Part shown: in pieces, positions 3,404 to 57,800 of the stretch | Layout of the letters: each line of letters begins with the position of its first letter | Numbering within the stretch: the stretch's first letter is position 1 | Source of the DNA: Callorhinchus milii | Lineage: Eukaryota | Reading direction: 5' to 3' | NCBI RefSeq assembly: GCF_018977255.1 | Contig: NW_024704761.1 | Coordinates: 3,906,001-3,970,000, forward strand | DNA: 64,000 bases | Notes under the pieces: model-generated | What the model was told of the DNA's origin: nothing | What the model saw: the letters and a program-made list of their open reading frames with translations, nothing else | The model's database searches: none | Program-made: the position numbers and the translations under genes

Positions 3404-6400
3404 TCACTTCCTCACTTTGATCAGCGGCTGGTAAATTGGCTTGACGATGACATGCAGGTGCAAGGAGTTGTCGATCAGGTAATCCGAGGTGCGTTTCTGG
3501 AGGTCGGCCCGCAGCAGGAAGTCCCCCGTCTCCTCCGTGCTTTGGTGGAAGTCGTAGATGTGCTTGACGTACGTCCTGCCGTCCTGCCTCGCCCTCACAA
3601 GCACCGTCTTCTGAAAGCTGACCCCGGCGAAGTCCGCACTGTTGGTGGCCGGAGTGACGATGATCCTGGGCCGGACGTCCTCGGGTTTCAGGGCCTGGAT
3701 TGCCCCGTGGTCGGCGTAGGAGGACCTCAGGCTGATGGGCAGCCACCTTGGGGAGAAGAGGACGTTCCAGGTGACCTTTTTGCTCGTGTCGTAATTGCTG
3801 GGCCCCAGTTGGGTTTGGAAGTTACTGCTGCGGTCGTCCCGGGCAGGGTTGTTGATCACCCACTGGGAGCCCCAGGACCCCGAGAGGTAGTTCCTCGGCA
3901 CGAACAGGCTGCAGTTGACGTCGAAGTACTTGGCGAACTGCAGCGGCGTGGTGGAGTGGAACTGGAACGCCAGGAAGAAGAGATCCTGCACCGAGACGTA
4001 ATGCTCGCTCATGAGGGGCGACTCCTTCTGGATGTGGAAGAGGTGCTGGGGGGCGATCATGGCGTAGCGGATGGACCTCAGCACGCTGTCCGACACCGCC
4101 GTCTCGGGCCGGTTCCTGGCCAGCCACTCCTCCACGGCCGAGTAAATCTCCAGCTCGTTCTCCACCACCAGGTCAGAGCGCTGGAGCAAGGACAGCAGCA
4201 GGTCTTGGCTGATGGATTGCCACTCTCCGCTGTGCACCAAGGGCGACAGGTTCCAAGCCAGGAACCTCTTGCACCTCTCCTGGAGCTCCTGGTTGCCCGC
4301 CCTGAACGCGTAGTGATACCAGCCCACCACATGCCCTTGGGGCAAGTCGCTGGCCAAGTGCTGGCTCATGTAATCCATGATACCATGCTCCAGGGCAGTC
4401 ACATGGTACTTGGTGGCCAGCTTGTGTAGGGGCACGGCCTGATCCAACATGATGGTGATCTCGCCGCAGTACAGATACCTGGAGACGAGTAAAATATTCC
4501 CTTTGAGTTGTTAAGACTTTGGAACTCCTTGGCTCTATCCCTCCGCCTGGCCCCCGCACCACCCACCCCCGGCCATCTTCAAATCCCACCTTAAAGCCCA
4601 CCTCTTCGGCCTATGCCTAAACATTCACCGACCACCGAAATCTCTCTCCGGAATTTCCATGTGGAGGTGGGATGCATGGAATTCTCAGTTTGGTTAACTC
4701 TTAAAGCACGGTGATGGGTTCCAGCATGTGTCAGACACCCACCCGGCTGACCACCTCCCCAACGCCCCCCCCCCCTCCCACCAGTGAAGTTGTTGCGAGA
4801 AGGGGGAGTAGGATTGGAGCGGACAGAGTGTGGAGGGGAAGGGGGAGCGGAACTTTAGGTAACAGGAATTTCAATTTACCTGATGAACTTCTCGAAGAGG
4901 GCAGCGCATTCCGCCGTCTCCCGCAACACGAGGGTGGCCACGCTCTGATTGTGTAGCAGGTTCTCGAAGACCTCACTCTGGAGGGTGAGGAGCAGGTAGT
5001 GGGTGTGGAAGACCTTCACCTCGTCCGAGTGAACTGTGTGGACTTTGAGGGTGATATCGCTGGTGTTGGAGTCACGCAGCAGGTCCTGGAGGTGGTCGAT
5101 CAGGGTGGCCGAGTGTTTTATGGTCCAAAGAGAACCCTCGCCATTTAACTCCAGCTTCTGGGCTGTGTGGGAAAAGAAGAAAACGCAACAACCTACAGTC
5201 ACTACACTTTACAGTATATTCTGTGAAGCGCTTTGAGACGTCTCGAAGATGCGATAAGGCGCTGCATCAAATGCAAGGATTATTATTGTTATTATAATGC
5301 AAATGGTCTTTTTTTAAAAAAAAAATAGATATAAAACCATTCAATTTTCACTTTCCAAATGCAACAACAACACAAAAAAAACACAACCAACGAGGGGGAA
5401 GGGAAGGAGAGGACAGGGGGGGTGGGTTAGGGAGATCGTTAAGAAAGTATATTCGGAGTCTAAAATCTTACAACTGTTACTTCCTTTACACACACAAATA
5501 AGATACACAAAATTGGATCGATATAACCAGCGTGAAGCAAAAAAATCTTAATATCCTAACAGGAATCTATCTCATTTGCAGAAAGATGTCTTGTACTAAC
5601 CAGACCAGCAAGGAATTAAAACTACGCCACTTTTGTTGTTGAGCTGTCGCACACTTTAATGAACTTTAAAACGCTTACGCTGTAAGACTCCAGGTGGCAA
5701 AAAAGGAACCGGTGCAAACGGATATTATTGCCAAATCTAACGAAGTGTTGAAAATAATTTATGGCACAAGTCAAGAAACATTTCTATCAATATAATAAAC
5801 CGAGATTATTTAACACTGCCGTGCGCAATTGGCTGCCACGTTTCGCCCGCAAAATACGCAGTCACTACACCTTACAGGATATTCTGTGAAGCGCTTTGAG
5901 GCTCCTCAACGACGTGACAAGGCGCTGTGTCAAACGCAAGGATTATTGCTATTTATAAATCAAGATTTTAGATGCTCCAGATTCATTCTGTCAGGGATTA
6001 AAACGCAAGGATTATTTGAAGGATTATTCGACGTTCAAACACATCTGTCAGATGCTGGGAGTGCAAACTACTGCTCCCTCGTCTGGCAGTAGGGAGAAGG
6101 TGCCTCAGTCATGAACGATGACAAAGAAAATATCAATTCCATTGGCGCGAGTGTTACGCGAATGTTTTTGTGGAGAGCAGGATTATTAAACTTCAGTGAT
6201 CTGAACTGCAGATCTCTATTTACTCTTCGCCGTTGGAGTCAACAAGCGTAAACCCCTTTGCTAATCAGTAACTCAGCCAGCCTTCAAATGCGTCCTGCCT
6301 GCCTGGTCGGGTGGACTTCAAAGGTACCATGACGCTACTTGAAAAAAGCAAATGGAGCTTCTCTCTCTTCGGGCCAACAGATAAAATCGGTCATTCACGT

Positions 6401-17204: not shown

Positions 17205-18089
17205 ATGTTCCTGCCCACGGGGGAAATGATCGAAGGGGAAATGAGCGAAGGGCACAACGCCACCCCACCGGGCCCCTCGCAGGGAGTGGGGGCAGCGGAG
17301 ATGGAGAAATCGCCCTGCGTCCTGGGAGTCATCCCGCTCGTTTACTACAGCGTCCTGCTCTGCCTGGGATTGCCTGGTAAGTCAGCCACAACAACAGTTT
17401 GCCTTTATATAGCGGTGTAGAGTCCCGGAGTCCAAGAGCCAAGGCTTCAGATCGCTGTCCTACACACAACACCAAAGCAAAGAGTTTTTTTCGAACAGCG
17501 CCGATGGGGTCTTTAACGTCCACCTGAACAGGCACAGGCGGGACCTCGGTTTAACGTCTCATCCGAAGATTTGGCTGCGGGCTGCTGCCTGCTGCGCGCG
17601 CTTGCGTACAAAGTACACAGTCACTACACTTTATTATTATTATTTAGACTCAGAATTGCAGCCCAATTTGTACCCCTCTCCCCCCGCAAAAAAAAAACTG
17701 TTTCAAAATTTCCACGAGACTACAACTAAAACGAATTACATTTACGCGGCGCCTTTCATGTCGGGAGGACGTCCCAAAGGGCCGGACAGTCAAGGGTTTG
17801 CACCCGAGCTGAGGGTTGGCATCAGGCGGCGTGGGGGGAAGGGAGGGTGGGGGGGTTTGGAACGTGACCGAAGGCGCGGTCGAAGAGGAAGGTCTTGAGA
17901 CGGCAGCAATCAGCAGTGATTCATGACGATGTTTCAGACAGAGAGATCTTATTACCAGCCAGAGCTTGTACTCACGTTGGCAGGAACATTGCATTTGGTG
18001 CCTGCGAATTGAATTTATCTCAGGTCTCCCATCCCCTCTCACACACACGTGCACACAGACACACACGCACACACACACACGTGCACACA

Positions 18090-18124
<35 letters not shown>

Positions 18125-19767
18125 CTCCCGACATCAACGGCTGATTCATCACTTGCTGTGTTACAGCCATTCGAATTGGATCACAGAAAGTGGTAAAGCA
18201 ATCAGACGAAATCAGAGCAAAGGAGCTTCACTGACCCAACGGGTGGAAACGACAACATATTGGGCGGGTGAGGGGGGTGTGGGGTTTGGGGAGGCAATGA
18301 GGTGGGGTAGAAATCTCACCCGGGTCTAGATTTACGTACTATTTAACGAGGCGATAAAACGCAAAGATTATTATTATTATTGTTATTTCAGAGGGTGCAG
18401 AACTTTGCAAATTGATGAATTCAGCCTTAACTTTCAAGTCGTCTTTTCTTTTAACCCCCTTTGTTCTTGAAAGAAATACCCCTTCTTTGCCCGTTCCTCC
18501 AATCACACGGATTAAGAAATTCTGGACTCCTGGAATTCTGAAATACTACGTTGTTAATAAGAGTCAAACGGACTTTATTCCCGGGGATGAATCTCTACCC
18601 GATCAATCTGGTGTGGAGACAGACCCCCCTCCCCTAAGCACGGTGATGGGTTTCCGTGTGTGTCAGATACACCCCCTCACCCCACCTCCCCGGCTGACCA
18701 AAAAGAAAAAGAAAACAGTCTTGCAGGTTGAGTGTAATTTCAGAGCTCGGGGTGGGTGGGGGTGGGGGGGGCGGGCAGGCTGCAGGCACGTGGTGTGTGA
18801 ATGGATGGAGACGTGTGTGTGTGTGTGTGTGTGTGTGTTTTTGTTCGATGGTCGAGTGTCTGACTGGCTTATCGTTGCCACATGGACGTGCTGATGTGAA
18901 GGTACATTCTGTTCCCATCAAAACACGGTCCAGCGGAGCTCAGTGTGTACTCGCGGTAACTTTCTCTCTCCTTTACCCTCAGTGAACGTCCTGAACACGG
19001 TGGTCCTCTCCAGCCTGGCCGCCAAGACCAAGAAGTCCTCCTATTGCTACCTGCTGGCCCTGTCGGCCTCCGACCTGCTGACCCAGTTCTTCATCGTGTT
19101 CGTGGGCTTCATCCTGGAGGCTGGGCTGCTGGCCCGCGAGTTGCCGGAGGCAATGGCCCACAGCGTGAGCGTCATGGAGTTCGCCGCCAACCACGCCTCC
19201 ATCTGGATCACTGTTCCGCTCACCGTGGACCGCTACTACGCCCTGTGTCACCCGCTGAGGTACAGAGCCGTCTCGTACCCCGGCCGAACCTACAAGGTCA
19301 TAGCCACCGTCTTCGTGGCTTCCCTCCTGACGGGCGTGCCGTTTTACTGGTGGTCGGATCTGTGGCGGGTCAGGAGCCCCCCCACCCCGCTGGACCAGGT
19401 GCTGGTATGGACCCACTGCTTCATCATCTACTTTGTGCCGTGCACCGTGTTCCTGGTGGTGAACTCGATCATCGTCCACAAGCTCGGGCGCAGGAGGGCT
19501 CCCAGCGGGCGTTCGGGCAAGACAACGGCCATTCTCCTGGCGGTCACTACCGTCTTCGCCATCCTCTGGGCCCCTCGTACTGTGGTCATCATCTACCATC
19601 TGTACGTCTCCTCGGTCAACAGGGACTGGAAGGTCCACCTGGCCTTCGACCTGGCCAACATGCTGGCCATGACCAACACCGCCGTCAACTTCTTCCTGTA
19701 CTGCTTCGTGAGCAAACGCTTCCGAGTCACCGTCAAGGAGGTCGTCAGGTCGTTCTGCAAGAGGTGA
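17205..19767 (+). CDS. GPR142: Class A GPCR GPR142; coding exons 17205-17376 and 18983-19767 (318 aa)
   Basis: SPCVLGVIPLVYYSVLLCLGLP|V joins in phase 1 to the 7TM exon (EFAANHASIW, TVDRY, GVPFYWW, LWAPR, DWKVHLAFDLANM, NFFLYCFVSKRFR). Diagnostic residues fit GPR142 better than GPR139, and it lies between BTBD17 and GPRC5C as in human. Confidence 0.93.
18040..18120. repeat. (CA)n microsatellite
   Basis: Seen directly. Confidence 0.95.
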
Positions 19768-21290
19768 CCAGCTGCCCTCCTGTGGGTGTGTGTGTGTGTG
19801 TGTGTGTGTGATGGGGTTGGGGGGTAGAGAAGGGGGAGCGAGAGAGAGGAGAAAGCCTTCAGATGGATTTCCGCGACGTCTCCTCATGTCGTGAGCTTCT
19901 CGTGTCCGCTGTGCGTTTGACCTCCGCCGTGAATCAGCGGCGCAGAACGGGAGCTGCCACCCCAAGGCAGAGACATCCCGACCCCCGTCGTTTGCTTGTG
20001 GTAAACGGTGCCGTTTGCACGTGTCGTAAATGCTATTGTACTGGAAGTGAAACGTGGCAATAAACACCGTCGGCGCTGGGTTCCCGCGTTTGTAACCAAG
20101 TTTGGCCTCGTCTTTCTCGACGCTCGCAGGCGGACGGGCGGAGAACGATGGGGCCCGGTTTCGGGGAGCAATTTTCAGGACAGACACCGGGAAGTTTGTC
20201 TTTACCCAGAGGCCGGGTGGCGGACTGGCTCCCCATTGGGGCTCGGGATTGTCAGGGGAAAATGGGGGGGGGCGGGGGGTGGAGGGGGAGAGGGAGGGTG
20301 GGGAGGCAGCAGGTCGGCACGAAACATCCATTGAACTAAGCTGCGCCGGGCGGGAAGTGCCGGGAGCAAATCACAGGGGCCGCTCGGGAAATTTCACAGA
20401 AATTTCACAGTCCGCCCCTGCCCGAGGGTGATTTAACAACTATAGCCACCAAAGTTCCTCCTCAGTTTCAGCCGTAAAACCGTTTAAACGTTCAGAATGG
20501 GCGGAAATTACGGAGCATTCTAATTCGGAAAGCCGGTTTTCCCCGCAGTTCTTAAACACAACCCCACCCCACCCCCAACCCCCCCCCCACCCCCCCGACC
20601 CCCACCCACCCCACTTCCCCACCCTCAAGAAATGTTTTGCAAATAAAGTCCGAATGCATTCGCAGAGTCTTTCAATACACTTGATTAAATTCCGAAGGCT
20701 CAAGACCGACGGGAAATATTCCGGACTCCGGGAATATTTTCGGTGGCCGCATTTGCCAACAAGGCCACCGGAGGGAGACGCTCCTCCTCCTCGTTGCGTG
20801 ATCCTTATGGGGGACGTTTTTACTCGATTTGTTTTGGGTCAACCGAGTGTCCGATACGTGTGTGGAAACCCATCACCGCTGCTTAAGAGTATCCAAACCG
20901 AGCTGAGAATTCCATGCATCCCACCTACACGTGGAAATCCCAGAGATAGATTGGTGGGATGGAATGCGCATTCTCTCTCTCTCTCTCCTGGAGGGATGCA
21001 TCCTGCTTACCTAATTCCGGAAAGTATTAGGCGCGGGTTGGCAAAAGACGAGGCTCGGGGGGGCAGCCCGGAGCATGCGTTGGGGGGACTGCTGGAGTCT
21101 AACCAGCTAAAACCGCACAGCAGTGAGGGCCACTGCTCCGTGCTGCTGAACCTCCGAACCGATTTGCACACAGTATCGCAAGGTTATAAAAGTCAGATTT
21201 AATTCACGGGTAATAACATGGACTTCGCTGAGCAGCACGTGCGCTGAAGACAGTCAGATCCACCCGATAATTACCAGATCATAGAAGGTG

Positions 21291-24419: not shown

Positions 24420-24707
24420 CTGAGAGGCTGGAGTCACACACTCACTCGCTCGCTCGCTCACTCACTCAGTGAGTGCAGTTCTCTCCTCTTTACTCCCGTC
24501 TGTCCGAAAGTGGGATAATAATAATAATAATAATAATAATACTATTAAGCGAGTGCCAAGGAGGTGGCGGAGGAAGCTGACTTTGCCTCGGTTTCCTGGA
24601 TCTGTCAGTTGACAACACAAACCCAGGAGTGTGGCACCAGGACAGAGCTTTGCTTTACTTGGGATCTCACTGCCTGAACTTGTATCCAGTCTGTCCTGCT
24701 GCCTCAG
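24420..24707 (+). other. Putative non-coding exon 1 of GPRC5C
   Basis: Strong donor CAG|gtaaga at 24708 downstream of a G-rich promoter-like tract. The next good acceptor (caacag|G at 27767) precedes the ATG. Contains an (AAT)n tract. The start coordinate is approximate. Confidence 0.5.
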
Positions 24708-25770: not shown

Positions 25771-27346
25771 TATTATTGTTATCAATAAAGTTATTGTTAT
25801 CTATGCTGGGATATAAATAGATATACTGTACAGCAGGATATTGTTTCATAGGGCAATTATAATTTGTAAAGCGCTTCAGGGCACTTATTGCATGTGGAAG
25901 ATGCTATATTATTAATAACAGCTTCCCTGCGCCACCCACACACTCCTACACAGAGTCGCTTGTCAACACTTTTCAGGTACTCATTGCCAGTGAATAATGA
26001 TCTTATTGTATTAAGTTTATAAACACCTTTCGGCATAACTCTGACCCTTTTTCTTGGGTGGGGGAGTGGGGCCTGAACAATAACTTAATTTAATTAATTA
26101 ATTGATGTTTCACACAAGTTTTGCCCCACCCTGACAAGGAACCAGGAACTCAAACCGTGGGGCTAAATTTCCACTTATCCCTCGTGGTATTAATTAGCAC
26201 AAGGGAACACCACAAAATGGGCTGTTGCTTCTTAATTAGCGCCGCAATTGCCAATTTGCCCGCACTCACCTCACCTCTCCGCACCCAGTCTCCAATTCTT
26301 TGAGACTCATCACAGCCTTTTCTCGTGTCCCGGCCGACAATTCCCTAAATACAATTGATCGCTCACTCCACGGCTGTTTGTGGGACAAAATACAGTCACT
26401 TCACTTTATGGTGTTTCCTGTGATATTAGAGATTGGGAGCAACCGGGCGATCGCAGTTAGGTATAGCCAGCGGGTATTTCCTTAAATTGCTCCGTGCGAC
26501 AATTAATATGAGGAACATCTTGAGGAACGCACGCAAATTCTGCTGCTGTAGAGTCTCAGGAACGGCCACCCAGTCTTAGCCCATTTTGTCTTAACGTTTC
26601 AGATTTAAATGTAAGAAATTTGGGGGGAGAGGGGGGGTTCAGCCTAATCTGGAAGCCAGGACTTTGAAAGGAGGACCTTACGAATGACGACTGAATTGAA
26701 GAGTTGGCTGGGATTCCCTTAAGGATTTTAAAAGCAAAAAAATTTGTCTCAAGGCTATAGCAGGTTGGAATTTCAGGACTTCGGGTGGTCATTTGGGAGC
26801 CCTATGATGCAGCTCTCTGGGAGATTGTAACCACGGCTACAAACAACGTTGAGCCATCCCCCCAGTGCCTGAATTTCGGGACCAAACCTCATTAGCAAAT
26901 CATTTTCCAAGACCAACCAGTGCTGATTTGACAAACATCTGCTCATTACTGAGCTGTTCGTTTGCAAACCTGTGCCAGTCTCTGCCTCTGAATGAAAGAT
27001 TTTGTGTGTTTTTTTGTGTTAATTGGATAATTGGGGGAGGTTTGCATTTCAAAGGGGGCAAAATAACTCTGTGCATCACTTCCCCACCTCACTGCCTCTT
27101 TCCCCTCCCCCCACCGTTACTCAGGAATTCCATACCAGAGCCGCTCTGATTCCCTCCCTCCCTCCATCTCCTTATTCAACTCCTGACTTAAGATCTCCCT
27201 CTTCGACCGTGCCTTCGACCACACTCTTCCCCACCCGCCCACCCCCTTGACTCCCAAGACCTAGTCGGGTACAAACCCTTAACTGTCCCAACGGCTTGGC
27301 ACGTCCTTCCGACGTGAGGTACTATATAAATGTTCTTTGTAAAATA

Positions 27347-27575
27347 ACTATTGCCTTCTTTTTTCTTGCATCGTCAATACCTCTGATCCCATCATCTCCT
27401 GTCCTCCAGCTAATCTTTTCCTTTGTCTTTCTTTCCCCGCCCTCCCATCTCTGCCGGTCCTTATCAACTGCTCCCTTCCAACATCCCCCAGTTCTGACGA
27501 AAGGTCATTGACCTGAAACGTTAACTCACTTTCCTCTCTTCGGAGATGCTGCCTGACCTGCTGACTTTTATTTTA
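27347..27575 (+). mobile_element. Penelope-like element terminal fragment
   Basis: Pyrimidine-rich segment plus hammerhead plus gatgctgcctgacctgctga; homologous over ~230 bp to 42545-42780 in reverse orientation. Family assignment comes from the hammerhead-bearing end. Confidence 0.6.
27490..27526 (+). ncRNA. Minimal type-I hammerhead ribozyme motif (Penelope-like-element type)
   Basis: AGTT-CTGACGA-A-AGGTC att GACCT-GAAAC GTT-AACT: both core boxes, 4-bp helix I, 5-bp helix II and palindromic ACGT helix III. Confidence 0.7.
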
Positions 27576-27814
27576 AATGTAATTTGTTATTGTTGTCGCA
27601 CTTTTAGTCATCGTCCTGCACCCCCACACACAGACCCCACCCCCTCCCCTCGATTTTCTCCCCCACCCGTGCCCCCCAACCCCCCCCTCGCAGCTCAGTG
27701 ATGCCTTCTCTCTTGCACCGCAGCATCACGTGGCTGCTGACTGACCTCGCTTCTCCTCCTCAACAGGTTGGGGACCATAGAGCGCCAGCCCAGGGGGGAG
27801 GCCAGTGGGTGGCG

Positions 27815-30800
27815 ATGGCGGGCTGGCCCTGGAGCTGGGCATGTGTCAGTGTCCTGCCCTTGGTTGGAGCTGCCATGGTACCTCAGGGGTGCGGGCCCGA
27901 CGTGAACGCCCTCTACTTCAACCTGTGTGACCTGGGTGCCGTGTGGGGCATCGTCCTGCAGGCGCTGAGCGGGGCCGGAGTGCTGAGCTGCTTCGTGTTG
28001 GCGCTGGTGTTGCTGGCCAGCGTCCCCTTCATCCAGGAGGGCAAGAAGAAGAGCACGGTCGGAACTCAATTGCTCTTCTTGTTCGGCACTCTCGGCCTCT
28101 TCTGTCTGGTCTTTGATTTCGTGGTGAAGATGAACTTTGCCACCTGCGCCTCCCGCAGGTTCCTCTTCGGCCTCCTCTTTGCCGTGTGCTTCTCCTGCCT
28201 GCTGACGCACGCGCTCAGACTCAACTTCCTGAGCAGGAAGAACTCGGGGCCCAATGGTTGGCGTGTGATGGGCTTGGCGTTGACCCTGAGCTTGGTGGAG
28301 GCCATCATCAACACCGAGTGGCTGGTCATCACCATCTTGAGGAACAACGCCACCTCCTCACCGGTGCTCGGAGATCCCTGCGACATCGCTAACATGGACT
28401 TTGCCATGGCTCTCATCTACGTGATGGTTCTCATGGCCCTGACCCTAGTTCTGGGCTTCACCAGCCAGTGGGGGAGCTTCAAACACTGGAAGAAGCACGG
28501 CGTGTTCATCCTCGTCACCATCTGGCTCTCGGTCGCTATCTGGGTGGCCTGGATCACCATGTACGTCTACGGGAACGAGGCCTTGGGGCGCGAGGGCTGG
28601 GACGACCCCACCCTCGGCATCGCTCTCGTGGCCAACGCCTGGGTCTTTCTCTTCTTCTACATTGTCCCCGAGATCTGCCAGGTGACGAAGGCGGGGATGG
28701 AGCAGACCTATGTGGAGGAGGTGTATCCCACCAGGGGTGTGGGCTACGAGACCATTCTCAAGGAGCAACAATCTCAGCACATGTACATAGAGAACAAAGC
28801 CTTTTCAATGGATGAGCCCAATGCAGGTGAGACTTGGGGTGGTTGGGGGGGTGGGGGTTGCTCTCTGGTGGAGTCTCGTCTTCACCTGATCCATCCCCCC
28901 CCAAACACTCTGCCATGTACCCAATGCAACACATTGGACATTTCGACAACGTGATCGGGCACGATATTAAACATAGGAATTCTTATAAGCGGAATGGTCA
29001 ATTATTGGTGTGAGGATATTGGATAACAAGCGCTTACTGAAGGGGTTGTGTGGATAACCTGTGGATTTGGGCTTTTTTTTTTTGCAGCTAACAAAAGCCA
29101 GTCACCTTACGGTGGTTACAGCAGCCAACTTCGCAGCAGCGTGTATCAGCCCACAGAGATGGCCCTGATGAACAAAAATAACGTGAGTCGCTTTATATTT
29201 CGGAGTCGGGGCAGTGGGGGAAGTGGGAGGGGGGGGTTACGTTACTGCATCTCACACTGTAAAGTACATCACAGCATCAATACTCTCTCACCACTAAAAC
29301 ACTGCCCTGCTCAGTCCTCACCAGCCTCTCCCCTGCTCAGTGCCTCGCTCTGTGCTGTCTCGCTCTTTCATCTGCCAAAGCCTGGCCGGGTGAGACAAAG
29401 AGATACTGTAATCAAACTCAGTCCTGGGCCCAAAAGATTTCATATCGGATGTCCAATTTCAACACTCCGATTGGATTTCCTTTTCTGTGCTTCCAGCCAC
29501 CGTGCAGTTAAGTCATTCCCATTTGCCTTCGACTGTGATTTACCCTCGACCTTGCAAATCAGATTATATCAAATTCTCAAAACAACTCTGCCCAAACGCA
29601 TTACATGCAATAACAATCCTCGCGTTTGAACCGGCGCCTAAAAATATCGCGAACGTCTCGTCGTGTTTCACAAACTGTGAAGTGCAGTTGCTGCATTTTT
29701 TTTTTTAGACGAACCCCAGAAATATGGAGACAATTCACGTTACAATATATTCCGTGTAGCGTTTTGAGACGTTTTGAAGACGTGAACAGCGCTATAATCA
29801 AACGCAAGGATTATATTTTATTATTTTTAAACGCAGCAGCTAATTTGCACGCAGCAAACCGTGAAGTGAATGATCAACTTGATCTGGGGGATTGTTGCCA
29901 GGGAGAAGCAAGTTCCTTTCTGTTTTCCGATAGTGTCACAGGCTGCTGAACGTCCACCTGTACAGGCACAGATGGGAACTTGGTTTGACGTCTCATCCAA
30001 AAGCTCCTCCAACAATGCGAATGCAACCTCCCACCCCCTCCGCAGCGTAGCCCGCAAAATAGACAGTCAATTCACTTTACAGTATATTCTGTGAAGCGCT
30101 TTGAGACGCCTCGAAGAAGTGATAAGGGTCTATATCCAGGGATTAATATTATTTTATTATTATAGCACGAGAGCATCACTGTTGACCCCAGCGTGGGTGC
30201 TTGAAACCCACAACCACCTGATCCAGAGACACCTTTTAATTATAACAGCACCGATGATTGCGCTGCGTGTTGATGCCTCCGATTAGCGGCTCCTGAATTT
30301 CCCGCAGAAATTGGGTTTTGTTTGAAGGCCGGAATCGCACGAGAGGAATTCTCTCCAGCGACCTCGCGTGCCGTCTTCTGGGATTTAATAAACACAACAT
30401 TTATTTTCGAGCTGTTGGAAAACAATATCATTAGCTTAATTACCAACAATTATTATCAGGGTTAAATGGAAGGAGTTGCTGCATGTTTTTAGTTACAAAA
30501 TGACTGATATCCTCTCGGGATGGGGAAAGCGAGGTGGAGGGATTCGGAACTAGCGTGTCCGTGTTGAGAGGAGGTGAGGGGCCAGAATACGTGGTGGAGG
30601 GAGTCAAAAGACATTTTGGTTTAATCATTTACGAGCGTGCTCGTGATCTTGCCCACAAAATGCACAGTCACTACACTTCACAGGACATTCTGTGAAGCGG
30701 TTTGAGAGGTCTCGAAGAAGTGATCAGGGACTATACCACATACAAAGATTATTATTGTGAAACTCAACCATGTTAGTCTGTGCTACTCTCCTCTTTCTCT

Positions 30801-32819: not shown

Positions 32820-33100
32820 ACAACAACACATCATATTTACGCAGTGCCTTTCACGTCGGGAGGACGTCCCGAGGCGCTGGATAGCGTCAGGAATTTGGAC
32901 CCGAGCTGGGCGTTGGGAAAAGGGCAGGGAGGGTAGGGGTAGGAGGGTGAGCCTAGGCCCAGTCAAAGTGGAGGGTCTTGAGATGGGCCTTGAAGGAGGC
33001 AAGGGAGGGAGTGAGGTGAAGGGTCTCTGGGATGGCGTTCCAACGGGTGGGGGCAGAAAGGCTGAAGGCTCGACCACCCGATGGTGGGGTTGGTCAGGCG
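32820..33100 (-). mobile_element. L2-type LINE 3' end
   Basis: Reverse complement gives ...ccttcaaggcccatctcaagaccctccactttgac...gggacgtcctcccgacgtgaaaggc...(TTG)n. Similar copies lie at 4510-4640, 17730-17905, 27105-27340, 33680-33875 and 63770-64000. Confidence 0.65.
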
Positions 33101-36100
33101 GGGGTGGCATGGAGCAGGCCGGTGCCATTGCTCTGATAGGAACGGTTCAAGCCAGCTTTTTAATGCGGTAAAATTCCCGGGTGTTAGTTAGCACCAGGAA
33201 TAGGTACGCAACACCAGGGTCACACAGGAACCTCTGCATTTCCTTCACCAACCAGTTGCTTGTTTCCCTTTGTGGGTGAAAACAGGCTCAATCCATTAGA
33301 CGCCGAAGAATGTGGATAAATGTCTAGATTTCTGATTACCTGCTGTTTGTTTTACTTCGTATCCGCATGTACACACAAACCAGAATGGCTCACCTACAAC
33401 ATACACAACACTTCACAGTGAATCCTGGGAAGTGCTTTGTGAAGTGCGCCCAATATGAAAGGCACTATATCAAATGCAAAGCTTATTGTAATGTCCCCGT
33501 GCTATACACAGGCCGGTGCTTTTGCAGCGAGTTTCATGATATGTTGACGTATTCAGTGGAAGCTGGTACTTTGGCGCAGGCTAAGACTATAGGGAATTCT
33601 GTTTGTCAGCAAGGTTACTGAATACCCATACCACAGAAGACTTGCCCCCTGTATAAAAGCTATCAGCCTTTGAGTGAGTGCCAGCCATCTCTCCCTTCCT
33701 TCAAAGCCTGTCTCAAGACCCTCCTCTTTGACCGATCTTCGGTCACCTTCCTACCCCTACTCTCCACTCCTCCTGATCCCAAACCCCAGCTCGGGTCCAA
33801 ATCCTTGACGGTCCAGCACCTTGGGACGTCCTCCCGATGTTAAAGGCTCTATACAAATGTGATTTGTTGTTGTTTGTTCCCCCCCTTTCTCTACCTTTAG
33901 GAAAATGCACAGAATCCTACAAAATTAAGCCCGCTTTCAGTCCTGAGCAGATCTCGTGGTCACTGCTCACCAGGCTATCAGTAATAACCACAGGCGCCTG
34001 GTTAACAGCCCAAAGTCTCTTTAGCACTCACCCAGACAGCTGAACAAAAGTCGTATTAAAATAACAAAGGGGGCGAGTTTCCAGTCCACTGACAACAAGG
34101 CTTACAATAACGTGCACTGGCTTACTAGAAATTCCTGGCATTTCCTGAGAAAAACAATCCCTCGTCCTGTGGGTAGGTCCTTGAGAGGCCAAATCAGCCT
34201 ATAAATAGGGTACTCAGAGCAGTGCAGCGCGCCGGACTCAAGCTGCATGGATCAGTATCTATTCCACTGACAGATGGTGGACTGCAGCTCAGCAGCTGCT
34301 GCTGTCAAGGGGAATGGCGATGTGATACCTTAAGTGTATCGGAGGATGGATCGTTGCTGAGATTTATCTCCAGGCATCGCGTCTGTGGACAGGATCGACA
34401 AGGGAACGCGGGCTACAGCTCTCTTTGGCATGGCATTGACCGATCATGTGGCCACTGGCTTTTATATGGAGCCACAACCCTAATGACCCTTGACATCTCA
34501 AGAGCTTCACAAGATTTACCGTGAAGTGCACTGTATATGTATTTTGTGGATGAACGCGGCAGCCGTAAAACAAACAGCGAAGTCACACGCGCAGCCAAGA
34601 AGTGAGTGAACAATTTTACCCGGAGGGATAGTCAGCCAGGAAACGGGGCGAAAGAAACTCTCTTCTCTTTTCAAATAGTGCCATGGGATCTTTAACCTCC
34701 AACCTCGGGTTTAACATCTCATCCAAAAGACAGCACCTCCAACAATAGAGCCCCACACCACCCCCCACCCAGCACTGCATTGGAGTGCCAGCCAAGACTA
34801 TACATTCAAAGTTCCTCCCGACTCAAAGGCAAGGCTGTTACTAACTGAGCCAGGATGACATATGTGTTAAGAGAGCATCACGTTCATTAGCCTGGGATTA
34901 TGTTCCCATCGAGCGGGGCTCAGGTTGTTGACTCTGTACACAGGCAGGAAGGAAGGAGAGGACAGAAGGTGAGAGAAGGACATCGGACGAGATGAGGCGG
35001 CAGTATACAGATCGTCTTACCTAACTAACATCCCAGCAAATTGTTGCAAATAGACAGGAAACAACAGCAAGTCCATGAATAATTTAGCGAGCCAAGCGCA
35101 GTCAAAATGCATTTGCAACCCAAAACTCCCTCCCCCGATACTGACATCTGTGCTGAACGCTGAGATTTAGAGCTGCAGCAGTTATCCCAGTCTGACTGGG
35201 ATGGTGTTTCCAGAATCAGCAAAATGCCGGAATTGGCTTTGGAGCCTCCAAGTCCAAAGTTTGTTGTTCAAGGCCCATGTTGGGGACTCTGAGCTCACAG
35301 TCTAGGCTGACACTAGTCTCTTCTCCTGCCCCCCACCCTCATCACAGCATCAAAGCTGCTTTTTAAATGAGTCAAATGTCCTGGAGCTAAGGCGGGTAAT
35401 TGGAGTTGAGGTACAGATCAGCCATGATCTAATAGGATGGTGGGACAGGCTCAAGGAGCTGAATGGCCTCCTCCCATTCCTATCTTTCTATGTCCTGGCA
35501 TCAAGCCCTGTTCACGTAGGATAAGCGTCTTGGAGCGCACGGAGAAGGGGTAAAGGCAAGGGGCCAGGATGGGAAGAAGAAGAGAGGAAGGAAAGAAAGG
35601 AATGAGCGCAGGTTCTAGTGAAATAAAAGGAAAAATGACGAGGAACATTTTAACCCCAGTCAAACAGACCACAGGACGTGGCTCGGGACAAGCAAGCTCT
35701 CTTCGAGGGAGACACGCACATATCAGCTTTGAAGCTTCAGCACGTCAACAGGAATTTTTGAGGTTGCCTGATTTTCTGCTGGGCTGCCAGTTCAAATAAA
35801 GCCAAAGGACAAAATAACAGAGCCGCCACTGTTTTTTTCTGTTCACAATAATATAAGATAGCAGACGGCGAGCGGCCTTCCCGGGATTCAGAAACCAAGC
35901 TAGTAATTACCCCAACGGCTCTTCAAATGTAAAGCCCTCCTGTTCTGCTTTCCTCCAACCTTCAGGGGGGGTGGGTATGGGGGCGAACAATCGGTACAGG
36001 GTCTGCAAGAACCAAGATTATCCCCCCCACCAACAGTCAGAACCCATCCGATCATTTCAGTCTTAAAATTTTCAATTATTGGAAATGCTTAAATTTGGTT

Positions 36101-42544: not shown

Positions 42545-42780
42545 AGAAATAAAAAACGAAGTCGCTGGGAACACTCAGGCAGGATCTAAGGAGGAAAGTG
42601 AGTTAACGTTTCAGGTCGATGACCTTTCGTCAGAACTTGGCGATGTTGGAAGGGAGCAGTTGATAAGGACCGGCAGAGATGGGAGGGCAGGGAAAGAAAG
42701 ATAAAGGAAAAGATTAGCTGGAGGACAGGAGATGATGATATCAGAGGTGTTGACGGCACAAGGCAAAAGAAGGCAATAGT
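42545..42780 (-). mobile_element. Penelope-like element terminal fragment
   Basis: Reverse-complement copy of 27347-27575. Confidence 0.6.
42601..42637 (-). ncRNA. Minimal type-I hammerhead ribozyme motif, second copy
   Basis: Reverse complement AGTTCTGACGAAAGGTCATCGACCTGAAACGTTAACT is identical to the 27490 copy except for one helix-II loop base. Confidence 0.7.
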
Positions 42781-43261
42781 GGGAGATTATAGAAAGAAAA
42801 GATGTGTCTGAGACCCAGAGGATGTGTGAATGATTATAGAAGAGGGGGAGTGGGGGGCAAGGCTGAGAGAACATGGGAGCTGTGTTTAAGGTCCCATCTT
42901 AAAAGTCAGATGTCATTCACATTTGGGAAAGGAAACTTGGCATTTCTCCACTCATATTAACCATTAGGAACATTTATTGTGGTGACTCATAGCTTTTGCT
43001 CAACGGGTTACCTGGTTACACTGAACCCAAACAAAACAATGTCTGTCCCAACGCTCGGAAGTGCTGCCTAACACTTATCATAGTCACAAGCTCCCCGGGT
43101 GATTCAGTGGATAAATCAACTGGTGAGTGATACGGATGAGGCTGGTTTCAGTGGCAGGGGAGAGCGTAAAGAGAGCTAGGGAAGGGGAAATAAAGCCCCA
43201 CTTGACTTCAGTGTACTCAGGCTGGAGAGCCAAGTCTCTAACGATAATCCATACATTTGAT

Positions 43262-46113: not shown

Positions 46114-49100
46114 TTATTCAGGATTCCTTCGCTTATCTGTACTGTCCTTATTCTTGGACAGATTTTGTTGCTTCCGTTTCTTTAGTTCTCTGTAAGCCTT
46201 CACCACCCTCTCTCGTTCCTCCAGCATCATCCTCTGGCGAGCCATGGACATTGTGGACACTTTAGCGCCTCCTGGCGTCTTGCGGGTGCTTTCTGATGTG
46301 CTTTTGTTTTGCTCGAACAGAGCCTTCAGAAGTAATGCCTTCTGGCCAGACTGGAATAGCAGACACTGGTATTAACATACGTAGGAAGACATGGAAAGCA
46401 CCATTGAAGGCTAGATATGAGTGCTCACTTCCTCACTACACATTTAAGAAATAACCTGGAATTCACCACCTTGTACTAAAAATTTATATTTGCCCCCCCA
46501 GATTTTTCAAGCTTCTCCCAGATGTGAAAACAATTTAACAGTAACAGGTAAGGATTTCAGAGTGGAATGAGGTTTAACTGCAGAGCAAATAAATTGAGTT
46601 GATGCTTTTATTCCTTATCAGACCACTTGTAAACACAACTCTCTGCTCTACAAATACTGGGATGTGACGTTTCCACCTTGTGTCAATACTACTCCTGGAG
46701 TCTGGAAGGTCATGAATCCAGCTCAACACAATAGGCTACACACACTAAACATTTACTGCAGCTGCCAACAGAGCTTGTACTGGTAGACAGGAACGGTTGA
46801 ACTCTTCTATAAAGGCTTTTGAATACACAATGTCCGTGCTTTTTGGTGGGAGAACAAGATGTGAAATATTTACCCTCTCCGTTTGCTGGCTTTTCCTGGG
46901 TTTAGCTGTGAGGGTCGGGGGCTGCAGCACCACTTCTCCAAAACTCACAGGATCTGCAAAACAGGATCAGCGATTCTCTGAACAAAGAACTGTATGTTTA
47001 CACTGAGAATGACTGAATTCCAATGCTTCAGAGAGATTTATTATGGCTTTGTCTTGTGGATAGGGGTAAAAGAGTTAAGGGGGAAGGGAGAGAAAACTCC
47101 TCTACTTCCCTCTTCCTCCTGTGCACCCAATACATCTTAGCTCAAAGCACAAACGTGCCGCTGATGGCAATGGCCAGCTCGAAGCATATTAAAGCAGATC
47201 AGTCAGTCAGCAATCATGAGGTGAACGAAGCATGCTAGGAATTGATGGTTTCACTCCTGGATGAGGTGAGCCACCCAGTGGACAAATTAGTTTAAACATC
47301 ACACCAGGAGCAGAGTGCTGCCCAAGTACAGTACCAGCCACACCACACTCTGGATATGGCAACACAATAATAACGCTTGCATTTGAATCTAACCTGCCCA
47401 GGAATCTAACCGAGGTCCTCTCGTTTGCGAGGCGAGCGCTCTAACCACTACCCTACGGCACTCCACAACAACACAAGTAACATGAAGACACAGCCGGCAC
47501 CAGCACATAATAATAATAATCCTTGCATTTGATACAGCACTTTTGCACGTCTTCTCGACGTCTCAAAGCACTTCACAGAATATACTGTAAAGTGAATTAA
47601 CCATATATTTGTGGGGGGAAATGAACGCGCACATGGAACGCAAGCGGAAAGCGGGACGCTCAATGCTACGTTACCCGTTATATACCTGAGAGCATTTCTT
47701 TCTCTCGGTCCACCTCGTTTCGCTCAACTTTCTTTCTGTTCAACCTCTCCACTCTCCTTCTGTCAAAGCTATTGGATGCAAACAGAAATTAGTCAACGAA
47801 CACAATGCAGCATAGTGAGAATAATACTTGCGCTTCAAATAGGGCCTCGTGTCGTTGAAACATGTCAAAGCACTTCTCAGGATTTACTGTAAAGTGCAGT
47901 GAATTCATAGGTGAATGAACCTGAAGAGAATGTAAGGTGCTTAACCCTTCAGCACAGTACAGGCTCACCTCAGCACATCTGCTGTGCAGCATTCCACAAT
48001 TCTTTTTCATTGGGACTCAATTTAAAGGAAGTTACATGGAAGAGATGGGCAGTTTTCTTGAAATTCATTGTGGGCAGAACCAATAGCATGGATTACGTAC
48101 TTTTTCTTTCGCTCTGATTTAGGTTTGACCAGGCTCTCCTCCTGCTTCGGCTCTTGCATCTCAGGGCAACGGTACTCTTGATTTCGCGTCAGAAACATGA
48201 CGTACTGCGACTCCCGGTCCATCCGCTGTATGTAGGCTCTCTCCGATTCCCCCTTCTTCTGCTTAAACTTCGGAACAGCTATGTAATCCTGCGGTTTTGA
48301 GTGTCCTGAAGCGGGTTTCGCTGCTGGGGCCACTGTTTACAAAGAGCAGATTTCTGTGGTTAAGTATTTCCCTCTAATTTTTAAAAAAACAATATTCTAG
48401 TTTCGCGGCACTTTTTGGGGATAAAAATTACAGGTTCTCCAAACAGCCCTCCACAGTCATGAAACGTCAGCCAAGGCAGCAAGTGTTGAGAGCGAGTCCA
48501 GCCGAGTCTTGTCCTGATCTCAACTAATGTCCACACTCGGTTTGCAGCGGGGATCACAGAGATCAAAAGCAGAAACTCTGGCTAAGTCCTTCTCCACCCA
48601 ACCCCAATACAAAGCCAATGAGGATAATTGTCATGCTCCATCCGCTATTCCGGGAATAACGGATATTAGCAAAAACACACTAATAAAGACTTAAGGAAGG
48701 ACAATTTTCACCATGCCGTGATTGTCAGTGGCTGCATCAGAGTAATCTGAATGTCTGAGGGGTATTACTGAAAGCAACTATCCTTTACCAGCGTTCTTCT
48801 TTGGCTTATTCATCCGTTTCTTCAATTTCTCTTTACTTCTCATTATTTCACGAAGTTTGTACGGAATCTCCTGATCGTCGACGTTCTTGGGCCTCATGTT
48901 GATCTCCTTGGGTTTCCTACGCAGTTACAAACACAGGCTATTACGACGGCCAAAACTGCAGTAAAATACAAATAGCCCATTATATTGCGGCCAATTATAT
49001 TCAATCTGCCCGCGCCCCCCACTTATCCCCTCCTGCGGCCATCCTTCGATTGGACAAGCGCCTCATCAAGTTGCCAACGCGTCTCAAAGCTCTTCACGGG

Positions 49101-53248: not shown

Positions 53249-53567
53249 GAGTCCTGTGGCTCAGTGGTTAGAGCACTCGCTTTGCAAGTGAGAGACCTGA
53301 GTTCAATTCCAGGCAGAGGGCCAAACCTTGGGCAAGTTTCCTTACTCCACACAGAGCCTAATAACAATCCCTCCAAAACCAAAAACAATAATAAATTGGT
53401 CATTTTCAATCTACGACTGTTTGTGGGACATTGCTGTGCGCAATTGGCTGCCGCGTTCGCCCACAAATATACAGTCAATTCACTTTACAGTGCGTTCTGT
53501 GAAGCGCTTCGGGACGTCCTCCCGACGTGAAAAGCGCTATATCAAATGCAAGGATTATTATTATTAA
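53249..53567 (+). mobile_element. tRNA-headed SINE
   Basis: ggagtcctgtggctcagtggttagagcactcgctttgcaagtgagagacctgagttcaattccaggc head, ccttgggcaagtttccttactcc, shared 3' module and (ATT)n. Confidence 0.8.
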
Positions 53568-54490: not shown

Positions 54491-54607
54491 TTGTAGGTAC
54501 AGTCATATGGGACTTTGACGCACTGACGTGTCCCGGAGACTGCGATCCTGGTGTTGGGATTTGCTGAGTTCATTATCCTCAGGAAACCAGAGCCCTGAAG
54601 TCTGGGA

Positions 54608-54761
54608 NNNNNNNNNNNNNNNNNNNNNNNNNNNNNNNNNNNNNNNNNNNNNNNNNNNNNNNNNNNNNNNNNNNNNNNNNNNNNNNNNNNNNNNNNNNNN
54701 NNNNNNNNNNNNNNNNNNNNNNNNNNNNNNNNNNNNNNNNNNNNNNNNNNNNNNNNNNNNN
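54608..54761. other. Assembly gap (N run) in the SYNGR2 promoter region
   Basis: Run of Ns. Confidence 1.
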
Positions 54762-54860
54762 CCCCCCCCCTTGTGTGTAAAAAAAAGAAAAGCCCTGCAA
54801 TTATTTACAGCGTATTTTAAAATTCTCCTTTCGAGTTCTTTTCATTTTTTTCGCACCGAA

Positions 54861-57800
54861 ATGGAAGGGAACGTTTACGGAGCGGCCAAAGCGGGCGGTG
54901 CCTTCGACTTAGTGAACTTTCTGAAACAGCCGCAGACCATCGCCAGGTTCCTGAGTTGGGTGAGTGAAAAACCCCCCTCCAAAAAAAAAATATATCTATA
55001 AATCTATATGTATGTAAAATGACATCGCTGTCTGATCAATTGAGACATTTGTTGCACTCCCCTCCGCTATACCTGTGCGGCTACAATGTATCCGCGATGT
55101 ATCCCCTTTCGCTCGTCCGATGTTTGCGGAGTGTTTTTTCTTCTCAATATTTTTTCTTTTATTTGGTAAAATCGCGACATGTGTTTCTTTTCGAAACGGG
55201 TTTTTCCTTAAAACAAAATAGGATGTTTTTTTGGTTCGAGTGAGGCTTCTGGTTCCAAGAAAAAAAAACCCCAAACCCCCCCCCTCTCCACCCCCCCCCC
55301 CCCCTCCACCCCCCGTCGGTCGGTGTTTTTTTTTATTTTGTATTTCTGTCCCCATTTTCAAGGTTTCGATTCGCTTTAAAGCGAAATCGAAATGTGTAAA
55401 TACATAGATATGTGTCGTGGCTTTTTGATACGATCTTGCACTTGGTGATTTTTTTTATGTGTGTGTGTGTGTGTGTGTGATGACTAATGATGAGGAGGAT
55501 TTTTATTCCTTTAATACTCAGATCCCCTCCTCCTCCTCTTAAGAAATTCGAGTTTTAAAAGCAAAAAAAGATAATCAAGAGTGTGTCACTTGATGAGATT
55601 CACTTCTTGTTTATCTCACTCTCGTTTCTCCTGAACCTGTCTGTAACATTGCCAACTGCAGGCCCGAAATAAACCCATAGAAAGTCTTGTGTGTGTGTTT
55701 TTTTGCTGCACAACAACCCCCCCCCCCTCCCCTGTCTTTCACCTACTTCCGCGTTGTGAACTTCAGAGAATCACATGCTCGGCCTCATGTTTCAGGTTCA
55801 AAGAGGAGAAGGGATGAATCCAATCCCAGTGCTGGGAAATAAACATATACACATACAACTCAGGCACTCACTCACTCACACACAACAACAACCCGCTCAG
55901 CGCTTGCTGACTACCCTACTTTTAAAGCGCAGGACTAGGCAGAGAACCGGCACCACGTTTAGGTACGCGGTCCACGCGCTCAAGGTGGCGTGCAGACGCT
56001 TACGCTGGAATAAATGCCCGAAAGACGAGCCTTGCAACGAATGATGTGCTTGCAGAGCGCGTTAAGTGCTGCGTAAATGAAGCCCTCGAATAAGTGCCCC
56101 CGTGTGTGAAACATTGCTGGTGTTTCAGCCCTTGTCTCGGGTCAACAACAACAATAACAAATTGCTTTAAGATAGTGCCTCTCACGTCGGGAGGTTCAGG
56201 TGGTGCATTAAACCCCATTCGCGCATTAACCACAATCGCCGTACTCTTGTTTTCCCTTTGCCTCAGATAACAGGCCTTCGGTGTTGCCTTTTTAATGCAG
56301 TTTTCTCGTAGGGGCCTCGGCGAGTGTGTGTGGGTCATCTTTTAAAAAAATCATTCAACGTTCTTTCTGGGTATAATAAACGGGCACCGGTAATCTGGCT
56401 GATTCACATCTCAACCCAGGCAGCTCCAGGGGATGTAGGGAACCCAGTCAGAAAAAAAGTCCTTGATGTTGCTATTGGAATAAGTCAGACAGGACGAGGT
56501 GAAACAGCAAAGCAGCTTTGGTCAAGAACAGGCTCTTTTCTCTGAGTGCTTCCTCTCAGGACATGAGAAGCTCAGAGAGTGAGAATGGCAAAGAGGCTGA
56601 GAAGTGGTGTTGAGAACAGTGACGTGTTTCTGCACTGTTGGGTCTATCGGCCATTTTTAGCTGTTGTGGTATTTTGATCTGCACCAGGAAGTAAGGTCGA
56701 TCATTGCCACATGAGTCTTGGATGTGGCGTGTTGCTAACTTGGCTTTTTTTGTGTTGTTGCGCCGTTTTGTTGCAGGTCTTTGCAATAGTTGTCTTCGGC
56801 TGCATCGTGAGCGAGGGCTATGAAAACACCCACACATCTGGAGAGTTGAAATGCATCTTCAATGGAAACACCAACGCCTGCCACTACGGTGTGGGGATCG
56901 GAGTGACTGCATTCCTCATCAGCACCGTCTTCTTTGGGCTGGATGGCTACTTCCCCCAGATCAGCAACATCACTCAACGCAAACACATCGTGATTGTTGA
57001 CCTGGTGGTTTCAGGTAGTGAATCCTGCACGCACTGTGGGTTTTAGTTTCCAGGCAATAAGGAGCGGAAGGGGGGGGTAGGGAGTGGGGGTGGGTGGGGA
57101 GGAGAGAGATGCTCTTACATTGACTCTCAGCACTTTAATAGAATTTCAGTATTCCCACTGCTTATTTTAATGTTTATAACTGGACTGCTTCCTGTAGCTA
57201 GCGCCAGTCTGATTGAGTTGGCAGTGCTCTCGTCTCTGAGTCAGAGGGTTGTGTATTCGAGCCGCCACTTAGGGCTCATGGTCCACGGTCGTGCTCCAGT
57301 ATTTTGCTGGAGGACTGGGGTGGAGAGTAAGTGAGCCGCACTTGGAAATGCCGTCCTTTGGACGAGACGTTAAAAATCGAGCTCCGTCGGCCTGTTCGGG
57401 CGGACGTTAAAGGTCCCTGCCAGGACTCTATTCCCCCCTCTCCAAAAGAGAAGGGGAATTTCTTGCACTGACATGTCCAACCGAGCCTCCGGTTAAAGTA
57501 TTCGTTCACCTCATAGCTGTTCGTGTGACGTGTGCCGCGTGTGAAGTGACCGGCGCATTTGCCTGCGGTGGTGGTCTGAGTGGGGGGTGGGGGAAAAAAA
57601 AACTCTGCCCTCGCCCGTCGGTAGGAATAACCGTGAAGTGTGTGGAGATGTTTCCCCGCGATTAAACCTGAAAATAGCTTCGCCGCCTGGCGGGTTCACG
57701 CTGCCGTTTTCTCTGGTTCTCCTGTAGCTTCCTGGACCTTTCTGTGGTTTGTCGGCTTCTGCTACCTGACCAATCAGTGGGGGTCCACTCCCCTCAAGGA

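Follow-up and report, generated by a model that had tools for sequence, protein, structure and literature searches.

The hammerhead motif upstream of the first coding exon of GPRC5C is very probably a silent, non-cutting passenger. It is the family-standard minimal hammerhead ribozyme (min-HHR) of a Penelope-like element (PLE), carried in a 240-bp end piece of the element that is inserted in a GPRC5C intron. The stretch of DNA analyzed, referred to as the window, is 64 kb long. The features that define the motif and its setting are as follows.

27490–27526, plus strand: min-HHR, a minimal type-I hammerhead (direct sequence reading and descriptor match)
27334–27573, plus strand: 5'-truncated end piece (3' UTR/pLTR) of a Penelope-like element (repeats 87–93% identical, on many contigs)
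27327–27333, plus strand: left copy of a candidate 7-bp target-site duplication, TAAATGT (junction; short and AT-rich)
27574–27580, plus strand: right copy of the same candidate 7-bp duplication, TAAATGT (junction; short and AT-rich)
27105–27596, plus strand: older, unrelated interspersed repeat hosting the PLE piece in its tail (blastn)
42575–42890, minus strand: sister copy of the PLE end piece, outside GPRC5C, with an intact motif at 42601–42637

The 37 nt of the motif (27490–27526, plus strand) read AGTTCTGACGAAAGGTCATTGACCTGAAACGTTAACT. Helix I has 4 bp and pairs AGUU (27490–93) with AACU (27523–26). The CUGACGA box occupies 27494–27500, and an extra A at 27501 is unpaired between positions 9 and 10.1. 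Helix II (AGGUC/GACCU) has 5 bp, an A-U closing pair and the loop AUU. The GAAA box lies at 27515–18 and the palindrome ACGU at 27518–21; positions 15.2–16.2 are palindromic, helix III is absent, and the predicted cut site, GUU^, falls at 27522/27523. Every element in the definition of a min-HHR is present: the CUGANGA and GAAA boxes, an NUH triplet, the unpaired 9/10.1 base, a short helix I, and a palindrome in place of helix III. The conserved G10.1-C11.1 pair, a typical feature of the min-HHR consensus that lies outside the published descriptor, is absent; an A-U pair stands there instead. A sequence-only reading had proposed a hammerhead at this site, and each helix, box and the cut site that it assigned was borne out letter for letter and by descriptor matches. 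Its description overlooked the A-U pair at 10.1-11.1 and the existence of hundreds of intact repeat copies.

A chance resemblance to the hammerhead consensus is so improbable that we reject it. The min-HHR descriptor matched twice in the 64-kb window, at the GPRC5C-intron site (plus strand) and in the sister copy (minus strand), and had no match in 150 first-order Markov simulated windows. The motif also lies in a PLE end repeat, where such motifs are described (PMC4209133). Two subfamilies of the repeat differ by a double change at 10.1-11.1: subfamily A has A in 19/20 and U in 19/20 copies, and subfamily B has G in 31/36 and C in 27/36. They also differ in helix I (A-U versus G-U). The double change suggests that the hammerhead structure mattered in the source elements, and together with the empty simulated windows it decided us against chance. 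What speaks for chance is a folding z-score of −0.14 for the 101 nt around the motif and an Rfam scan of the window at gathering threshold that called no hammerhead family; we do not count the Rfam silence as evidence against the motif. The scan returned only a tRNA-like match (53254–53316, plus strand, 38.9 bits), probably the head of a tRNA-derived SINE.

The end piece aligns to its family over 27347–27564, beyond which there is a short deletion, and the family's last ~30-nt tail is missing. The older repeat in which it sits, which we take to be a LINE2/SINE-type 3' tail, has further blastn copies in the window at 33700–33874, 32851–33056 and 17756–17899. The first of these runs continuously across the insertion point and carries no PLE insert. 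A contig of sequencing run X11 spans 26347–27517 and links unique flank with the PLE piece; its crossing of the joint between flank and element rules out misassembly as the source of the insertion. The X11 letters differ from the window at 27271 and, inside the insert, at 27440; no differences are listed within the motif, of which this long contig reaches only as far as 27517. We propose that the reverse transcriptase/endonuclease of a source element would have copied the end of an RNA into the older repeat at an AT-rich position. The nearest PLE copy lies 15 kb off and is inverted. The GPRC5C and sister copies differ by one loop letter in the motif and have eight non-majority letters in common, which suggests local copying or gene conversion.

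The family is abundant. The 33-mer of the subfamily to which the GPRC5C copy belongs has 121 exact matches in the genome, an intact-core pattern covering both subfamilies has 764, and a 20-mer from the PLE tail has 5,133; the reversed-pattern control gave 0 in each case. From the first 100 tail-20-mer matches listed, all on contig C1, we took 83 copies at 79 loci; selection by the tail means that they were chosen independently of the motif. Inverted element sequence lies just upstream of the 5' end in 31/83 copies, and family copies exist both with and without the tail. The family thus shows 5' truncation, adjacent inverted copies and an optional tail, hallmarks of endonuclease-positive PLEs.

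Four locus pairs were examined as possible full-length or tandem elements, plus two more for context, and only one locus, L033, holds RT/GIY-YIG-like remnants. There the PLE end piece lies downstream of broken frames with a YIDD motif, in a fragment that we take to be RT-like, and a GIY-YIG-like domain. The top Atlas match of the L033 frame scores 0.93, and 11% of the members of that cluster have GIY-YIG, which is a lead only; Pfam gave no match on three L033 fragments. An inverted copy lies upstream, and the sister copy (42575–42890) is collinear with L033 from the frame's stop codon on. Through L033, the end piece takes the position of a terminal repeat downstream of an RT/GIY-YIG frame. The layout of L033 and its inverted copy matches the Penelope-like architecture described in PMC8557442 and PMC4209133. 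Membership of the end repeat and linkage to a GIY-YIG-like frame therefore support the earlier assignment to Penelope and to the min-HHR class. Other candidates were set aside. At L031, 2355–2442 and 7030–7117 were considered as a pLTR pair; they are 4.7 kb apart with near-identical flanks and looked like a local segmental duplication. An RVT_1 match at L034 appears to be part of a different LINE. An 826-aa open frame at L079 (582–3062, minus strand) joins a PLE GIY-YIG-like C terminus and 3' UTR to a LINE2/CR1-type endonuclease-RT. It was rejected as an intact PLE, being fused with another LINE and without a matching end piece, and probably reflects one element nested in frame within another by chance. 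None of the 150 GIY-YIG-like matches scored contained a long intact PLE frame.

The gene context rests on the following features.

27767–28826, plus strand: GPRC5C-like large first coding exon, 7tm_3 (Pfam 7tm_3, E 1.7e-32; spliced contigs)
24515–24707, plus strand: candidate upstream GPRC5C exon, with donor CAG/GTAAGA at 24707
3404–4510, minus strand: BTBD17 (Pfam), upstream of GPRC5C
18895–19767, plus strand: GPR142-like 7tm_1 frame
46114–48336, minus strand: CCDC137-like exons
54519–55001, plus strand: SYNGR2-like exons

The closest Atlas clusters of the 27767–28826 exon product are GPRC5-family members, one of them named GPRC5C-like. The names GPR142-like, CCDC137-like and SYNGR2-like are our presumptive labels; by synteny, BTBD17 and the GPR142-like frame fit the GPRC5C identity. 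The motif lies 241 nt upstream of the acceptor at 27767, on the same strand; together with the 7tm_3 domain, the GPRC5 clusters and the spliced contigs, this confirms the earlier claim of a GPCR first coding exon with its acceptor ~240 nt 3' of the motif. Assembled contigs of four sequencing runs (X1, X3, X5 and X11) were used, of which X1, X3 and X5 were taken by guess to be RNA. Contigs of X1, X3 and X5 join three GT-AG introns downstream of 27767. Those of X1 and X3 enter the window at 27764 carrying 190–193 other letters, which agrees with an AG acceptor at 27765–66 and splicing into 27767 from a distant exon. The donor at 24707 is the best among those listed and agrees with both the 3-letter contig overlap and the 190–193 extra 5' letters. 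The motif is therefore likely to lie within a GPRC5C intron, the upstream exon being a candidate. Intron sequence upstream of the motif (26598–27242) is covered by contigs of an RNA-like run. Cover at 19312–19975 is present in X11 and absent in X1, which hints that the X1 intron cover is not DNA.

We asked whether the core of the hammerhead is retained better than its surroundings. The motif is fully intact in 11 of the 83 anchor-selected copies, or 11 of the 56 that span it; the remaining 27 were left out of the core counts because they fail to cover the motif or cover it with gaps. In the 56 copies, changes from the commonest letter of the column at non-CpG positions were found at 34/524 sites in the core and 49/896 in the 3' flank (p = 0.48), and CpG core positions were changed at 16/92. 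At A/T sites, the 3' half of the core was slightly less changed than the flank (13/336 versus 36/715, p = 0.44). A set of long copies was drawn from 110, the 83 plus 27 tail-selected copies, of which 18 extend well upstream; two tail-selected loci that repeated anchored ones were left out, as was L049, the locus of the query itself. At A/T sites, these 18 gave 8/126 for the core versus 12/157 for the flank (p = 0.82), and at G/C sites 4/41 versus 10/131 (p = 0.74); CpG core sites were changed at 6/31. Copies with the harmless N7 C-to-T change somewhat outnumber those with the fatal G8-to-A change (~50 copies by hand count, 41 of them among the first 100 of 121 listed, versus 33 exact genome copies, p = 0.08). 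From these comparisons, which test the family and not the single copy, the catalytic core of genomic copies appears to decay about neutrally, like its flanks. The sequence-only reading had itself named a core no better conserved than the flanking repeat as an outcome that would speak against it, and at the family level this is the outcome.

The GPRC5C copy differs from the commonest letters at 0/36 motif positions and 13/175 flank positions (p = 0.13); set against the unbiased pool, the figures are 0/36 and 3/52 (p = 0.27). It differs from the sister copy at 1/37 motif and 17/172 flank positions. Neither the 0/36 nor the 1/37 contrast appears decisive. The intact state of this copy weighs little, since it was picked for being intact and an equally intact sister sits on the opposite strand, outside GPRC5C.

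Cleavage of the GPRC5C transcript is not expected from folding predictions. Helix III cannot form in the monomer, and ViennaRNA instead predicts an inactive hairpin in which the core letters UGACG pair with CGUUA around the cut site, so that both are buried. The pair probabilities of this hairpin are 0.65–0.99 in the 37-mer, 0.51–0.68 in a 243-nt context and 0.31–0.39 in a 471-nt context. The double hammerhead is predicted at −9.7 kcal/mol versus −18.2 kcal/mol for two monomers, hence unfavorable by 8.5 kcal/mol, in nearest-neighbor energies that leave out tertiary and Mg2+ stabilization of the core. Three features of this copy are of a kind that slows cleavage: the A-U pair at 10.1-11.1, a GUU triplet, and a 4-bp helix I lacking any loop that could make tertiary contacts. 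The motif stands alone, with no second unit in tandem. According to PMC4209133, a lone min-HHR stayed uncleaved and dimers cleaved at a low level. PMC11167929 describes the hammerhead of PAc (Poseidon of Anolis carolinensis) as uncleaved without the element's protein and reports no RNA-seq reads ending at its cut site. We suggest that the motif would work in its source element either as one half of a tandem dimer or assisted by the protein that the element encodes, whereas alone in nascent GPRC5C pre-mRNA it would fold into the UGACG/CGUUA hairpin. With core and cut site hidden in this way, the motif is predicted not to cut the transcript, and the intron would likely leave by splicing uncut.

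The earlier proposal of RNA-level control of GPRC5C is thus unsupported: the core decays like its flanks, the copy is solitary, the predicted fold is inactive, and single min-HHRs in published work remained uncleaved on their own (PMC4209133; PMC11167929, without protein). In its strongest form, the proposal would have a domesticated intronic ribozyme cut GPRC5C pre-mRNA with the help of trans partners, PLE protein or host chaperones and so tune splicing or expression. We consider this highly unlikely. An intact sense-strand core lying 241 nt before the acceptor, the unchanged motif (0/36), the RNA-like cover of the intron (26598–27242), the 764 potential trans partners and the conserved intronic hammerheads of amniotes in RECK, CTCL and DTNB (PMC6155905) are in its favor. 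They are set against the lack of family-level constraint, a weak A10.1-U11.1 pair, a GUU triplet and a loopless 4-bp helix I, the predicted 8.5 kcal/mol cost of the active dimer, the want of a long intact frame among the 150 GIY-YIG-like matches, and the normal acceptor in spliced contigs. Were a host pre-mRNA cut in trans by a minimal PLE hammerhead, the hundreds of intact copies might together make up a network of control at the RNA level, and the origin of conserved intronic hammerheads such as that of RECK would be shown.

The insert could instead act through its 5' signals. The 5' ends of the copies pile up at helix I, with 26/83 at the equivalent of 27490–27492 and 34/83 at 27487–27495 (anchor-selected copies), compared with 4/83 near the cut site (27519–27527). 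This preference for helix I over the cut site argues that the RNA templates copied by the family were not ribozyme-cut. Upstream of helix I, a long pyrimidine tract ends in CAG, and at the resulting site, CAG/TTCTG (27489–27492), transcripts of the family may begin or a 3' splice site may lie. Such a site might give GPRC5C a minor alternative start or a cryptic acceptor, a reading in line with the pile-up and the pyrimidine tract, with D. virilis Penelope, in which the intron ends where helix I begins (PMC4209133), and with a start site in the pLTR (PMC8557442). The contigs point the other way: those of X1 and X3 that are listed enter at 27764 with their 190–193 other letters, as in splicing from a distant exon, and 27491 is used by none of the joints listed. 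We regard a promoter or splice role as very unlikely. Co-option of the GPRC5C copy by either route, trans-paired intron cutting or an alternative start or acceptor at 27490–27492, is improbable; the copy retains ~155 nt of sequence 5' to the point where the family's RNA appears to start, with its motif unchanged throughout. If true, this would be the first PLE minimal hammerhead controlling a host gene. Read as a relic, the motif matters little and is one more remnant of a described element class.

Comparison with known systems leads to the same verdict, that the GPRC5C-intron motif is an ordinary relic of an element class in print since 2014. No relevant literature linking GPRC5C with a ribozyme was found, nor any on hammerhead ribozymes in the chimaera genus; the supplements of PMC4209133 may list cartilaginous-fish motifs. 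Min-HHRs were described in the pLTRs of metazoan PLEs (Cervera and De la Pena, 2014, PMC4209133). Like those, the motif has a type-I core, an unpaired 9/10.1 base, a 4-bp helix I and a palindromic 15.2–16.2 without helix III, and its family, like theirs, runs to thousands of copies per genome, most of them single and truncated. It departs from them in its GUU triplet, in a helix II of 5 bp (7–8 in S. mansoni) and in A10.1-U11.1, whereas the sister subfamily has G-C as in the consensus. As in PAc, the hammerhead lies near the PLE end, the tail is optional and the target is AT-rich; the PAc hammerhead, however, is described as cleaved only with active protein, and the GPRC5C locus is a truncated end piece alone (PMC11167929). 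The type-I hammerheads of RECK, CTCL and DTNB likewise lie within introns of protein-coding genes, but they are canonical and conserved across species at one locus (PMC6155905). The GPRC5C-intron motif is minimal, lacks the helix III and loop-loop contacts of the RECK-type fold, and is still inside a high-copy repeat. Animal non-LTR retrozymes are also PLE-derived, hammerhead-bearing and non-coding (bioRxiv 10.64898/2026.07.22.740005); they are described as tandem arrays, whereas the GPRC5C copy is a single unit whose nearest relative is the inverted one 15 kb away.
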